30,826 nucleotides of DNA from Candidatus Hydromicrobium americanum (GCA_002779205.1 PEXF01000124.1:1-30826), one strand, 5' to 3'; positions 22,451-30,187 are shown, counted from the first letter of the stretch. The notes: generated from the letters alone by a model not told the origin. A program made the numbers and translations.

Positions 22451-25400
22451 TTAGATATTGATTTCTATTTCTTTTACGTCATCTCCCTCTGATTCCTGAA
22501 GGATTTCTATCTCATCTTTATTGTCCTCCTTATAGCCGGGGTAATCTAATTGATAGTCCTTAAAGCTTCTCATACCCGTTCCTGCCGGTATAGCCTTACC
22601 TAATATTACATTCTCCTTTAGTCCAACTAAATTATCTATTTTATTCTCCAGAGCTGCATCTGTTAACACTCTGGTAGTTTCCTGAAATGATGCAGCTGAA
22701 AGAAAACTATCAGTCGCAAGTGAAGCCTTAGTTATACCCATTAAATTTTGAACAGCTGTTGCTGGTACCTTCATGTTAGAAATTAATTTGTTATTCTCTT
22801 TTTCATAATAGAGCCTGTCTACCAGTTGCCCCGGGAGAAAATTACTATCTCCGGGATCAATTATGGTAACTTTCTTCAGCATTTGTCTGGCAATTACTTC
22901 TATATGTTTATCATTTATATCCACACCCTGAGCTTTATATACGTTCTGTACCTCTTTTACTAAATATTGCTCGCATTCCTTAATTCCGTTAATTCTTAAA
23001 ATATCATGAGGGTTTCTTGGCCCTTCAGTTAATTGATCTCCGGCAGAAATCTTATCCCCATTTTTAACATTTAATTTTGCTCTAGTCGAGATCTGATAAA
23101 CCTTTTCCTGCTTGCCGTCCTTACTTTTTATAGTAAGCATTCTGAAGCGGGAATCTATGTCTTCGATTTCAACTTTTCCTGATATCTCTGCTATAAACGA
23201 ATGTTCTTTAGGCGTTCTGGCTTCGAATAATTCTACTACCCGGGGCAGACCGCTGGTAATATCAATACCTTCAAAAGTTTTTTCATGCTTGTGAACATGT
23301 GTTTTTCTCTTAGCAGTAAGAATTAGTTTGGCAAAAACCTCTCCAACCTCAACATTTACTTTTTTATTTATCTGGAGTATTTCACCTTTAGGAATAATTA
23401 CATCTACAATATCTCCTCTCTCCATCTGAACCTGGAAAATTAATTTATGTGGAATATGTTCTATATTTATCTCAATAACCTCGCTGGTATCCTTCTCAGT
23501 GAGGTCAGCTTTTTTAATATTCAGCTCAGATAACAATTCTTTTCTGAATATAAGCTTTCCTTTAACCGGCGATTTTATAGACCTCTGTATTACAGTACTT
23601 GCTACCCCACCTGTATGGAAAGTACGCATAGTCAGCTGGGTGCCTGGCTCCCCAATAGATTGGGCTGCTATAATCCCTACCGCTTCTCCAATTTCAACTA
23701 GTTTGCTAGCAGCAAGATCTCTTCCATAGCATTTCTGGCAAACTCCGGATTCTGCTTTGCAAGTCATAACTGAACGCACTTTTACACTCTCAATATTAGC
23801 ATGTATGAACTTCTGCAGGTGCTTTTCAGTAATTTCTTCATCACTTTTTATTATATTCTTTTTAGTATTAGGATTATTAATTTCTTCCAGACAGGTTCTT
23901 CCTGTTAAATTAGTATTAGGTTCTCCTTCAAGAGTTAAAACATAAAGATTTATACCTTCCTCGGTCTTGCAGTCATTAATTCTTACCATGGTATCCTGTG
24001 CAACATCAACAAGCCTTCTGGTAAGATATCCCGAATCTGCAGTTCGTAGTGCAGTATCTGCAAGTCCCTGTCTGGCACCATGGGTGGAAATAAAATATTC
24101 CAAAACCGTAAGTCCCTCTCTAAAGTTAGATTTGATAGGACTATCTATGATATCTCCCCTAGCATTTGCTACCAGTCCTCTCATACCTGCTAACTGACGG
24201 AGCTGTTTTATATTTCCTCTAGCACCGGATGTAGCCATCATATAAACCGGATTAAATTTGTTAAAATTCTTTTCCATAGCGCTGGCTACGCTTTCATTAG
24301 CCTGTGACCATGTTTGTATCAATCCCTGATGTCTTTCAAATTCTGTTATCAAGCCTTGCCTGTAATAATCTTCAATTCTTTCAATTTTTTTCTCCACACT
24401 GCTTAAAATTTTAGCTTTTTCGGGTGGTACATCTATATCATCTATTCCTATAGTAAGACCCGACCGGGTTGCATACTTAAATCCAGCCTGTTTGATTGCA
24501 TCCAGCATTTCCGTAACAACATTTTGAGGAAATCTGTTTATGCATTCAGCAATAATAGCAATAAGTTCTTTTTTAGATATTTCTTTATTAACAAATTTAT
24601 AACCCTCAGGCAGCGATTCGTTAAATATTATCCTTCCAACTGTTGTCCTGGTTACTTTCTCCTCAATTTTCACCTTAATAGGTATATGTAAAGATATAAA
24701 ACCATAATCATAATCTAAAATAGCATCCTGGGGATTATTATAAAATCTCTCCTTGCCTTCTGATTCTTCTCTTTCTGAAGTTAAATAATATATTCCCAGG
24801 ACCATATCTTGAGAGGGGGCAACAACTGGTTGACCGCTTGCAGGGGATAATATATTATTTACAGACAGCATCAAAATCATCGCTTCAGCTTTTGCTTCAT
24901 TTGATAATGGTACATGAACAGCCATCTGGTCACCGTCGAAATCTGCATTAAATGCAGGACAAACCATAGGATGAATCTGTATAGCCTTACCCTCTACCAG
25001 CACAGGCATAAACGCTTGTATACCAAGCCGGTGAAGTGTCGGTGCACGGTTAAGCAGGATAGGGTGATTTTTAATTACCTCTTCTAATATATCCCAGACT
25101 TCATTACTTTCTTTCTCTACCATAGTCTTGGCACTCTTTATATTCTGAGCAAATCCCTCATCAACTAATTTCTTCATAACAAAGGGCTTGAATAGTTCCA
25201 AAGCTATTTTCTTTGGAAGCCCACATTGTTCCAGTTTAAGATTAGGATTAACTACAATAACCGATCTTCCCGAATAATCCACCCTTTTACCTAAAAGGTT
25301 CTGTCTGAATCTACCCTGTTTGCCCTTAAGCATATCACTTAAAGACTTAAGTGGCCTGTTTCCAGCACCAACTACAGCCCGGCCTCTTCTTCCATTATCA

Positions 25401-26671
25401 AAAAGTGCATCAACGGCTTCCTGAAGCATCCTCTTTTCATTGTTAATAATTATTTCAGGGGCATCCAGTTCCAGTAGTTTCTTAAGCCTGTTATTTCTAT
25501 TAATAACTCTTCTGTACAGGTCATTCAAATCAGATGTGGCAAATCTTCCACCATCTAACTGAACCATCGGCCTCAAGTCCGGGGGAATTACGGGAAGTAT
25601 ATCCAGAATCATATATTCAGGCTTATTGTCCGAATCTATAAATGAAGATAATATTTTTAGTCTCTTTATACTCCTCATTCTTTTCTGGCCTTTGGACTTC
25701 TTCACAGTTTCCTTAAGGTCCTCGACCCCTTTTTTGCAATCAATATTTTTCAGTAGTTCTTTTATAGCTTCTGCCCCCATTCCACCTTTAAAATACTGTC
25801 CATAAATTTCTTTCATTTTCTTAAACAGGGCTTCGTCAGAGACCAGCATCTTTTCCTCTAAATTAAAGAAAAAAGTATCAGCTCTTTTTATCAGATCAAT
25901 TTCTTCCTGATATATTTCCTCCTCTTCTTCCAGGAGCATCTCTGTCTCTTTGATGACTTTCGCTTTCTTTACCTCTAAATCCAATTCAGGAATTTTTTCC
26001 TCTTTAACAATCTTATCATCTATATAATTTTCATCTTCTTTAAAATCTTCATCTACTTCCTTATTTGCTTCCCGAACTTCAATTAAACTTTTTTTATCAC
26101 CAATTTCATTATTTTCACTTATAAAATCGTCTTTATTTAATTTTAATTCTTCCAGTCTTAGCTTGTGCAATTCCTTTGCCCTGTCCAGAGCCCTCTGGTA
26201 CAACTTTTTAATTTCCTCTTCTTCAGCAGTTATTTTCTCTCTGTTGATACTGGTTATAATATAGGAATCAAAATAAAGAACTTTTTCTAAATCCTTGGGG
26301 CTGATATCCAGAACATATCCTATCCTGCTGGGAACTCCTTTGAAAAACCATATATGTGAAACCGGAGATGCAAACTCAATATGCCCCATTCTTTCCCTTC
26401 TTACATTAGATCTGGTTACTTCAACCCCACATCTCTCACAAATTATTCCCTTGAATCTCACCCTTTTATATTTCCCGCAGTAACATTCCCAGTCTTTGGT
26501 GGGGCCAAAAATTCTCTCACAGAACAGCCCATCTTTTTCCGGCTTTAATGTCCTATAATTTATAGTTTCAGGCTTTTTAACCTCACCATTGGACCATGAT
26601 TTAATTTTTTCTGGTGAAACAAGCCCAATTTTTAAAGCATCAAAATTATTTACATCTATACTTACGACCAT
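22451..26671 (-). CDS. rpoC: RNA polymerase beta' subunit
   Basis: Zn site CYCGK...[26 protein letters not shown], catalytic [12 protein letters not shown], bridge helix, SAASFQET. Contains two lineage-specific inserts (see findings). Confidence 0.99.
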
Positions 26672-26728: not shown

Positions 26729-29700
26729 TTATTTTTTACTTCTTACCTTTTTCTTTTTGGACGCTTCAGTGTTACTTTCTTCTTTCTCGTCTTCTGATTT
26801 CTTTCTCTTTATTTTTCCATCCTTTTCTTTAGTTTCCTTCACTTTCCCGTCTTCCAGATCTTTCTCTTCCTTAAGATCAATCCCTAAATCCTCAACAGTT
26901 TTCATAATCTCATCTTCAGCTCTTGATACTTTTACTTCCTTCCCTTCTTCTGATAACACCTCCACATCAAGTGCCAGGCTCTGCATTTCTTTTATAAGCA
27001 CCTTAAATGATTCTGGAATTCCTGGCTTCTCTATATTTTCACCTTTTACGATTGCTTCATAGGTCTTTACACGTCCTGTTACATCATCTGACTTTATAGT
27101 AAGCATTTCCTGCAACGCATAGGCAGCACCATAAGCCTCCAATGCCCACACTTCCATTTCTCCAAATCTCTGACCACCAAATTGTGCCTTACCTCCTAGT
27201 GGTTGCTGGGTAACTAAAGAATATGGACCAGTAGATCTTGCATGAATCTTGTCATCTACCAGATGAAGCAATTTCATTACATATACATGACCTACAGTAA
27301 TATTATCAGATAGTTTCTCTCCGCTCCGGCCATCATACAAAGCAGTTTTTCCGCTCCCAGGGAGATTGGCCATCTTTAGCAGTTTTACTATATCCTCTTC
27401 TTTTACTCCCTCGAAAATAGGTGTTGAAACATAGACAGGACCGTCTCTACTAATATTCTCCTTTTTATTATTCCATCCTTTATAAGCTGCCCAGCCAAGA
27501 TGAGCTTCCAGTAACTGGCCTACATTCATTCTTGAAGGAACTCCCAGAGGATTAAATATTATATCTATTGGTTCACCATCTTCAGTATAAGGCATATCTT
27601 CTTCAGGAAGAATTACTGATATGACTCCTTTATTACCATGTCTCCCTGCAAGCTTATCACCAATGGAAATCTTTCTTTTTTCTGCAATGAATACTCTGAC
27701 AAGCTCGTTTACTCCTGGTGGAAGGTCGTGCCCCTTTTTTCTGGAAAATAGCTGTACATCTAAAACTTTCCCGCCTTCACCATGAGGCAATTTAAGGGAG
27801 CTCTCTCTGACTTCCCTTGCTTTTTCACCAAAAATTGCCCTCAACAATTTTTCTTCTGCCGTAAGCTCTGTTTCACCCTTTGGTGTTATCTTGCCAACCA
27901 GTATATCTCCTGGTTTTACCTCAGCTCCAATTCTTATAATTCCGTGTTCATCTAAATTTTTTAAAGCTTCTTCTCCTATACTTGGTATATCCCTTGTTAT
28001 CTCTTCCGCTCCAAGCTTTGTGGTTCTGGCTTCTACTTCCTGTTTTGAAATATGAATAGATGATAGAATATCTTCTTTTACCAACCTCTCCGAAATAATA
28101 ATTGCATCCTCATAGTTATATCCTTCCCAGGACATTAAGGCTACTCTTAAGTTCTTACCCAGCGCCAGTTCACCCGCACTGGTTGCAGGCCCGTCTGCAA
28201 TTACACTACCATTTTTAACTTTTTCACCTTCTTCTACGATGGGCTTTTGATTTATACAGGTTCCCTGGTTTGATCTTCTAAATTTATACAAACGATGAAT
28301 ATAGTTCTTTTCTTTCTTGTAATTTATCTTAATATGGTCTGCACATACTTCTTCAACTACGCCATCGTCTTTGGCAAGAACCAGTACTCCACTATCCCTT
28401 GCTACCTCTTCTTCCATTCCTGTACCTACCAGTGGAGGCTCAGGATCAATTAATGGTACTGCCTGACGTTGCATATTAGAACCCATTAATGCTCTATTGG
28501 CATCATCGTGCTCCAGAAATGGTATAAGAGATGCAGCAGCACTAAAAATTTGCCTTGGTGACACATCCATATAATCTACCATACCCGGTTCAACAGTGAC
28601 TATTTCATCACCTGAACGCGCTATGACTCTTTCTTCCAGAAATTTACCGTCTTTTCTGACTTTTGCAGTTGCCTCAGCAATTACATAATTTTCTTCATTA
28701 TCTGCAGATAAATACTCCACCTTATTGGTCAATTTACCATTAATAACTTTCCTGTAGGGTGTTTCTATAAATCCATACTCATTTAATCTTGCATAGGTAG
28801 CCAGAGAGCCAATCAGTCCAATATTAGGACCCTCTGGCGTTTCTATGGGACACATTCTCCCATAATGAGATGAGTGAACATCTCTCACTTCAAAACCAGC
28901 TCTCTCCCTGCTCAGTCCACCAGGACCAAGAGCACTTAGCCTTCTTTTATGAGTAATTTCAGCTAAAGGATTGGTTTGATCTAAAAACTGCGAAAGCTGC
29001 CCACTGCCAAAAAATTCTTTTAGACTGGCAACTAAGGGCCTAATATTAATTAAAGATTTTGGAGTTATTGTATCAACATCCTGGGTGGTCATTCTTTCCT
29101 TTACAACCCTTTCCATCCTTGAAAGACCAATCCTTACTTGATTTTGTATGAGCTCCCCAATATTTCTGATTCTTCTATTTCCAAAGTGGTCAATATCATC
29201 TATTTCACCTATACCACCCATAAGTTGAACCAGATATTTAACTATTAAGAATATGTCCTTACAATTCAGGATATGTTTCTCACTTGTATCTATACCCATT
29301 TTGGCATTAATGGTACCAAGCCTGTCTAAAATATTTTTATCAGTTTCCTCCATTAGCTTTTGATCTATTTTATATCTCCCTACTTTTCCAAAATCATATC
29401 TTTTTGGATTGAAAAATAAGGAGTTTATAAGATTTCTGGAACTTTCAACTGTTGGCGGCTCTCCAGGTCTTAATTTTTTATATATCTCAATTAATGCTTC
29501 TTCCTCAGTTTCAGTAAAATCTTTCTCCAGAGTATTTTTAATACAGCCTTTTTTATCATATGGCCCAAAAATGTTTAGCAGGTCTTCATTATTTCCAAAA
29601 CCTACAGATTTTAAGAAAATAGTAAGTAAAAACTTTCTTCTCCTATCAATTCTCACATAGGCAATGTTTCTTTTATCAGTTTCAATCTCAATCCATGAAC

Positions 29701-30187
29701 CTCTAGTAGGTATAACTTTACACATATATATGTCTATTTCAGTCTTCTTATCTATATCTGCATCGAAATATACTCCCGGAGAACGGACTAATTGAGATAC
29801 TACCACTCTCTCCGTTCCATTAATTATAAAAGTTCCCTTTTCAGTCATCATAGGAAAATCCCCCATAAAGACTTCTTGCTCTTTTATTTCACCAGTTTCT
29901 TTATTTATAAACCTTGACAGAACTTTTAAAGGAGCAGTATAAGACATATCCTGCATTTTACACTCGTCTGGAGTTGAATTCTCATCATCAAAATTATAGT
30001 TTAAAAACCCAAGTGACATATTGCCTGTAAAATCTTCAATGGGTGAAATATCCTTTAGAGCTTCCATGAGTCCTTCTTCCAGGAACCATTGGAAAGACTT
30101 CCTCTGTATATCCAGAAGGTGAGGCATATCCATTAATTGTGGGATTCTGCCAAAATTATACCTCTGGATTTTTTTGATTTTTTGCAT
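26729..30187 (-). CDS. rpoB: RNA polymerase beta subunit
   Basis: [68 protein letters not shown]. Confidence 0.99.

Follow-up and report, generated by a model that had tools for sequence, protein, structure and literature searches.

The 30,826-nt stretch PEXF01000124.1:1-30826 from Candidatus (Ca.) Hydromicrobium americanum (GCA_002779205.1), here called the window, was found to encode an RNA polymerase beta' subunit (RpoC) in which the two arms of the trigger loop are separated by an insertion of 112 amino acids (aa). The host belongs to the class Ca. Humimicrobiia of the Actinomycetota. We read the insertion as one sandwich-barrel hybrid motif (SBHM) at the tip of the trigger loop that was fixed once in the ancestor of Humimicrobiia, has been constrained since and acts as a modulator of trigger-loop folding, and we put the probability of this reading as a whole at about 0.72. 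The insertion resembles SI3 but has a single module, to which it was reduced or at which it has stayed, and it occurs in a phylum reported to lack such inserts.

According to the literature, every known trigger-loop insertion has at least two SBHMs. Actinobacteria are listed without trigger-loop SBHMs (PMC11077087), and a survey from 2024 assigned them to type 1 beta', without lineage-specific inserts, and contained no variant with a single trigger-loop HABAS domain (PMC11515920). No published description of the Humimicrobiia insertion was found in the literature, and an insertion this small has apparently not been described previously. The initial annotation, which a model made from the window sequence alone, would have lost its claim to novelty if the phylum had already been known to carry the SI3 (beta'i6) insertion or if the insertion had been widespread and already described in this clade; neither was found to be the case.

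Position and anatomy of the insertion

The 112 extra codons had been placed at positions 23264-23599, and translation of rpoC mapped aa 1025-1136 to exactly those positions. The features of this part of the window are as follows.

23600..23674, minus strand: N-terminal arm of the trigger loop, aa 1000-1024, invariant in the class (aligns to arm 1 of the E. coli beta' trigger loop).
23264..23599, minus strand: 112-aa trigger-loop insertion, aa 1025-1136, STVIQRSIK...KTFEGI (translation, class-wide alignment).
23315..23593, minus strand: folded core of the insertion, aa 1027-1119, one predicted sandwich-barrel hybrid domain (AlphaFold2, VIA-align, alignment indels).
23264..23314, minus strand: conserved basic linker from the domain to the second trigger-loop arm, aa 1120-1136 (alignment, BLASTP; modelled with low confidence).
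23192..23263, minus strand: C-terminal arm of the trigger loop, aa 1137-1160 (translation; aligns to E. coli beta').
23018..23209, minus strand: universal jaw SBHM of beta', after the trigger loop, aa about 1155-1218 (weak matches to PF21668 RPOC_hybrid and to the cytochrome f C-terminal domain).

The insertion is bounded by TFHTGGVA, which closes the first arm at aa 1024, and by DITSGLPRV from aa 1137. Both flanks were aligned to E. coli beta' by BLASTP, with the insertion lying between GG(V/A)A and DIT(S/G)GLPRV around SI3, so that the proposed identity of the insertion point with the SI3/beta'i6 site was borne out.

The insertion consists of a core of about 95 residues followed by a linker of 17 residues. 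Between families, the core showed 39-43% identity and the linker 53-76%. Among 13 sequences from three families, 21 columns of the insertion were invariant, eight of which are linker residues (A, K, K, K, H, E, K, and E). The core contains a short helix and variable loops, and the length variation that was observed (8-20 extra residues in two genera) was restricted to two of these loops. The net charge of the insertion is +4 in the window (class median +3, range -4 to +14), compared to -4 for E. coli SI3.

Distribution of the insertion

A 161-aa probe spanning the insertion was used to screen 87 Humimicrobiia species genomes from three families and 19 genera. Full-length matches (55-100% identity) were found in 76 of them, covering all three families and 18 of the 19 genera, and in 45 of the 48 genomes of high quality. 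Every genome of the class with a probe match contained the insertion, with a length of 111-132 aa. The 11 genomes without a match included three of high quality (92%, 91%, and 90% complete). In five non-class genomes without a match, rpoC could not be detected at all with a longer RpoC query and PF04998; extrapolating from these, the misses within the class probably reflect missing rpoC as well. One genome of the family, assembled in 7 contigs, has an rpoC whose trigger-loop region (G216:C3:324112-324595) is interrupted by stops or frameshifts at three places (TGA, TAA, and TAG). These breaks are likely to be long-read assembly errors rather than signs of a pseudogene, since rpoC is essential.

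Elsewhere in the phylum, the 161-aa probe was matched by its two flanks only. A second, 55-aa probe derived from an insertion-free actinobacterial trigger loop was compared with 401 genomes, all from Actinomycetota. In 32 of 32 Humimicrobiia the match to this probe was split in two (E about 1e-11), whereas each of the 340 other Actinomycetota with detectable rpoC had a single match that ran unbroken across the tip of the loop; the remaining 29 genomes were unmatched. The junction was read directly in 40 non-class genomes, picked for a long RpoC or for closeness to the window, and the loop tip was 4-7 residues in length. The insertion-free sample includes six unpublished genomes (G020, G065, G105, G137, G381, and G397), and the conclusions are independent of them. 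This mapping across Actinomycetota, which the initial annotation had proposed, thus upheld its statement that characterized Actinobacteria join the two flanking motifs directly. The non-class RpoCs closest to that of the window in the C-terminal 264 aa (families f45, f27, f40, and f25; 61-65% identity) were also insertion-free and 1264-1322 aa in length.

The insertion was also found outside these genome sets. A scan of back-translated GTDB species genomes with the alignment of the insertion detected 71 loci, all of the Humimicrobiia type and all in metagenome-assembled genomes (MAGs) of Actinomycetota, including Ca. Humimicrobiaceae, Ca. Hydromicrobium sp., Ca. Humimicrobium oleiphilum UBA1414 and Ca. 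Hakubella thermalkaliphila. Likewise, a word-indexed search of 5.8 billion proteins detected Humimicrobiia-type RpoCs only, and more than 100 independent RpoC clusters from metagenomes contained the insertion. The insertion is neither an assembly artefact nor a chance feature, since it recurs across the genomes of the class and in these clusters. A profile of 13 insertions compared with 1.84 billion representative proteins retrieved just 5 fragments of the same insertion; full-length Humimicrobiia RpoCs are probably hidden behind insertion-free representatives of clusters formed at 50% identity.

No trigger-loop insertion was found in the other long actinobacterial RpoCs (1390-2012 aa), in which the extra residues lie elsewhere. 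The longest frame (2012 aa; L120, G309:C6:8959-12075), from a 1.3-Mb genome of family f62, has a short trigger-loop tip GGAGGSDITHGLP and SBHM-like repeats right behind the second trigger-loop arm, e.g., IRTGDKVEAGQPI, VYDGLHVNKGDVIA, and VEKGGAVNKGDIVA; in this lineage the jaw SBHM, not the loop tip, appears to have been multiplied. Some RpoCs of 1477-1540 aa, from L138 (G063, family f31) and from families f23 and f42, have a tip of 5-7 residues and diverge straight after LP(T/R)V, e.g., DITQGLPTVGRMFDVVGN; it is the jaw region, rather than the trigger loop, that accounts for their additional length. On a 4-kb contig (L111, G055:C80:1731-2288) of an Actinomycetota MAG with 3% contamination, an RpoC bearing an SI3 of Gram-negative type TFHYGGTASRVTEQSKHSAKNPGTLKF was detected. 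It was rejected as an actinobacterial insertion, being most likely a binning contamination; a normal actinobacterial rpoC is present on another contig of the same MAG.

Selection on the insertion

The ratios of non-synonymous to synonymous substitution rates (dN/dS, Nei-Gojobori) were 0.02-0.15 for the insertion and 0.03-0.16 for the rest of rpoC in the same pairs. Purifying selection on the insertion is as strong as on the rest of RpoC.

Predicted fold

Structures were predicted with AlphaFold2 from an alignment of 68 sequences of the trigger loop and the insertion, and a second model covered aa 845-1345. Both models agreed on a beta-rich domain with one short helix at aa 1027-1119 (predicted local distance difference test score, pLDDT, 80-89), forming one continuous domain that is followed by the 17-aa linker.

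A comparison of this domain with 48,161 PDB chains (VIA-align) showed barrel-sandwich hybrid folds in 49 of the best 50 entries. The best matches were biotinyl and lipoyl domains (Z 7.2), and further matches included lipoyl-like domains of membrane-fusion proteins, cytochrome f and NusG domain II. Among polymerase SBHMs, cyanobacterial or plastid Si3 (8w9z_c, Z 6.9; 8h02, Z 6.7; 8syi_Z, Z 5.5), SI3 of E. coli (Z 5.9 for both 2auk and 4iqz), the M. tuberculosis jaw (6edt_D, Z 4.0) and the beta flap were matched. A Foldseek search ranked cyanobacterial and plastid beta' first. Look-alikes retrieved with a language model, which serve as a lead only, were RpoC fragments with PF21668. The core of the insertion is thus predicted to be a single sandwich-barrel hybrid domain. 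This is in agreement with the flanking pattern from which the initial annotation had proposed a single such motif, and the structural search against E. coli SI3 and the jaw that it had called for pointed to the same fold class.

Comparison with known trigger-loop insertions

The insertion shares with E. coli SI3 (beta' 943-1130; PDB 2AUK, 4IQZ) the site at the trigger-loop tip and the fold class. Both are surface domains carried on two trigger-loop arms, and in both cases GreA is encoded by the same organisms. The SBHM/HABAS build of SI3 is seen in the predicted model of the insertion. However, E. coli SI3 has two SBHMs in 188 aa, whereas the Humimicrobiia insertion has one SBHM of about 95 aa and a 17-aa linker; the models show one domain only, and 112 aa are too short for two. 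Besides, E. coli SI3 is acidic and the insertion is mildly basic, with an exit linker about 12 residues longer than that of SI3 (a 12-residue gap in BLASTP, in agreement with hhalign). Both hhalign and BLASTP weakly paired the final hairpin of the insertion with its counterpart in E. coli SI3. Sequence homology to the SI3 modules (PF21668, RPOC_hybrid) was undetectable, and the phylum in which the insertion occurs is reported to be without such inserts.

The Si3 of cyanobacteria and plastids (RpoC2/beta''; PDB 8H02, 8SYI, 8URW, 8W9Z) is located at the same site and gave the best structural matches within RNA polymerase (Z 5.5-6.9). Like the Humimicrobiia insertion, cyanobacterial Si3 occurs within Terrabacteria, outside Gracilicutes. 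It comprises 8-9 nested or swapped SBHM/HABAS domains in about 640 aa and a split rpoC, in contrast to the single module and unsplit gene of Humimicrobiia. The universal jaw SBHM (HABAS beta'-bD6, PMC11515920; M. tuberculosis beta' 1041-1115) has the same fold as the insertion, lies about 20 residues downstream in the same protein and has a compatible strand order in hhalign. It differs in being universal and outside the mobile trigger loop, and its similarity to the insertion is not significant (probability 2.9%).

Outside the trigger loop, the Humimicrobiia RpoC is like type 1 beta' of Actinobacteria and Firmicutes and also has the N-terminal insert known from Actinobacteria. Its trigger-loop arms, however, are joined by 112 residues instead of 4-7. 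The Humimicrobiia protein therefore has the N-terminal insert of Actinomycetota-type beta' but not its uninterrupted trigger loop, and the co-occurrence of the two inserts in one RpoC, which the initial annotation had considered unusual, was confirmed.

Proposed function

SI3 shifts with the folding of the trigger loop, making alternating contacts with the jaw and the rim helices, and modulates pausing and traffic in the secondary channel (PMC11077087; bioRxiv 10.1101/2021.01.27.428476). By analogy, we infer that the Humimicrobiia insertion modulates trigger-loop folding. Being borne on both arms, it would move as a rigid body with each cycle of folding and unfolding of the loop. It would dock on neighboring surfaces, for example on the jaw and on the secondary-channel rim helices, and would thereby bias the folding equilibrium of the trigger loop. 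Such a bias would tune the rate of elongation, pausing, intrinsic and GreA-assisted RNA cleavage, and secondary-channel traffic. The conserved basic linker lengthens the connection to the second arm and would be the likeliest place for a lineage-specific contact.

All 48 class genomes of high quality were found to encode GreA. This shows that a secondary-channel factor is available to interact with the insertion, and it rules out that the insertion replaces Gre factors, as proposed for cyanobacteria. GreA (PF01272) was not found in the source MAG, which is 82% complete, and is likely to be missing from it through incompleteness.

Several observations weigh against trigger-loop modulation by an SI3-like domain. 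The insertion is one domain and has no inter-SBHM Phe pocket such as governs E. coli SI3; a pocket of this kind is impossible because it forms between two SBHMs. The contacts may differ from those of E. coli SI3, as the insertion is basic (net +4) and SI3 is acidic (net -4). The linker and the trigger-loop arms were placed without confidence in both models, so that a docking surface could not be read from them. The Z scores of 5.5-7.2 are in the middling range of the tool, and the fold call relies on a predicted model and on how uniform the list of matches is. No family was matched in a Pfam search with 13 insertions at E values up to 10, and the hhalign comparison of the insertion with E. coli SI3 was not significant (E 0.058, probability 0.9%). 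Finally, the organisms with the insertion are all uncultured.

Origin of the insertion

From an alignment of the RpoC core without the insertion (34 rows and 1241 columns), a maximum likelihood tree was built, with E. coli as the root. All three families of Humimicrobiia, represented by 13 rows, fell into a single clade (Shimodaira-Hasegawa-like approximate likelihood ratio test, SH-aLRT, 100). This tree, which follows the suggestion of the initial annotation to analyze the core separately, shows that one change suffices for the distribution of the insertion. Where the initial annotation had allowed for gain, transfer or ancestral retention, the data favor a single event on the stem lineage of Humimicrobiia. 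The single-gene tree does not firmly place the class among the other Actinomycetota, and therefore a gain at the class stem and one loss across the root are formally equal in it. The gain is favored because other Terrabacteria are reported without trigger-loop SBHMs and because the insertion bears no sequence trace of SI3. Trigger-loop SBHMs are absent from Firmicutes, Chloroflexi, Deinococcus-Thermus, and Thermotogae (PMC11077087). An intein or another mobile in-frame element was rejected as a source, since no Pfam domain was detected on the insertion and its presence was uniform over the class, not patchy.

The jaw SBHM of the same protein (23018..23209) is a possible source of the insertion by duplication. 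The comparison of the two by hhalign was not significant (E 0.016, with the probability given above). It is conceivable, and we put it forward tentatively, that the insertion is an independently evolved minimal module, with the jaw SBHM copied into the loop tip in the ancestor of Humimicrobiia and the linker making a contact unlike that of any described SI3. Candidates for what the basic linker would contact are then nucleic acid, the entry path of nucleoside triphosphates, or a factor.

A rather unlikely alternative is that the insertion is a cut-down multi-SBHM SI3 that was transferred from an SI3-bearing phylum, or an ancestral relic that was lost by all other Actinomycetota. The insertion site is identical to that of SI3, the last beta-hairpin aligns weakly with the last hairpin of E. 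coli SI3, and Humimicrobiia branch near the base of the phylum (PMC10746217), with the RpoC tree leaving one loss as cheap as one gain. However, the similarity to SI3 is not significant, the jaw SBHM of the same protein is matched at least as well, and outside the insertion RpoC has a typical actinobacterial make-up that extends to the N-terminal insert. An ancestral SI3 would also need several losses, as the other phyla of Terrabacteria lack trigger-loop SBHMs (PMC11077087).

Alternative roles of the insertion

We consider it improbable that the insertion is mainly a docking platform for sigma, another transcription factor or, through the basic linker, downstream DNA, with only secondary effects on the trigger loop. 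Such a platform would resemble the SI3-sigma arch of cyanobacteria, and cyanobacterial SI3 is reported to have a trigger-loop-independent role in initiation (PMC10120043). The idea agrees with the basic linker, and not the barrel, being the most conserved part of the insertion (53-76% compared to 39-43% between families), and with a net charge opposite to that of E. coli SI3. However, with about 95 residues the domain has a much shorter reach than the cyanobacterial SI3 of 65 kDa, no partner was found, and its attachment to both arms must in any case influence the folding of the trigger loop.

The insertion is very unlikely to be a tolerated passenger, without a regulatory role and kept since its removal would now destabilize the trigger loop: E. 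coli without SI3 is viable only with a compensating trigger-loop substitution (PMC11077087), so that retention alone is no proof of an adaptive role, but dN/dS is as low as in the rest of RpoC, surface-exposed linker residues are invariant over three families, and length changes are limited to two loops.

Genomic context and the N-terminal insert

The other features of the window are as follows.

22451..26671, minus strand: rpoC, RNA polymerase beta' subunit, 1406 aa (open reading frame, ORF; translation; five Rpb1 Pfam domains; best PDB matches are bacterial beta' chains).
25862..26233, minus strand: N-terminal beta' insert specific to the actinobacterial lineage, aa about 147-270, rich in Lys and Glu (second matched stretch, actinobacterial chains only).
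26729..30187, minus strand: ORF of 1152 aa in the rpoB position, immediately upstream of rpoC (ORF only).

The ORF at 26729..30187 was assumed to be rpoB from its position and size. This ORF, rpoC, and then more ORFs are all located on the minus strand of the window, which has a G+C content of about 36%. The source MAG comprises 1.18 Mb in 167 contigs. A Pfam search of RpoC recognized five RpoC/Rpb1 domains. The presence of the actinobacterial N-terminal insert, which the initial annotation had noted, was supported by the alignment of aa 224-340 to M. smegmatis beta' 178-298, a stretch matched only in actinobacterial chains. In Humimicrobiia this insert is about 43 residues longer than the mycobacterial one and has a very high content of Lys and Glu. 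The length of RpoC within the class ranges from 1369 to 1601 aa, so that variation extends to further parts of the protein.

Implications

SI3-type inserts ride on a moving catalytic element and govern pausing and proofreading, and both their basic purpose and their single or repeated origin are debated in the literature. The Humimicrobiia insertion is a counter-example to the stated distribution of trigger-loop insertions, and it supports repeated independent colonization of the trigger-loop site or else marks a very early state. In an older view, SI3 is a multiplied form of the "typically single" SBHM of beta' (PMC1586193), and a beta' with the jaw and one trigger-loop SBHM is the intermediate predicted by that view. 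If the origin from a jaw copy is true, Humimicrobiia would present a living first step (one SBHM) toward the two-module SI3 of Gracilicutes and the nine-module Si3 of cyanobacteria.

As the organisms are uncultured, further work must rely on recombinant enzyme. The insertion is the smallest natural system for asking what one trigger-loop SBHM does, and the polymerases of M. tuberculosis, M. smegmatis, and Streptomyces are well-studied insertion-free controls. Humimicrobiia form a basal branch of Actinomycetota alongside Ca. Aquicultoria and Ca. Geothermincolia (PMC10746217), and the insertion provides a clean molecular marker for this class.

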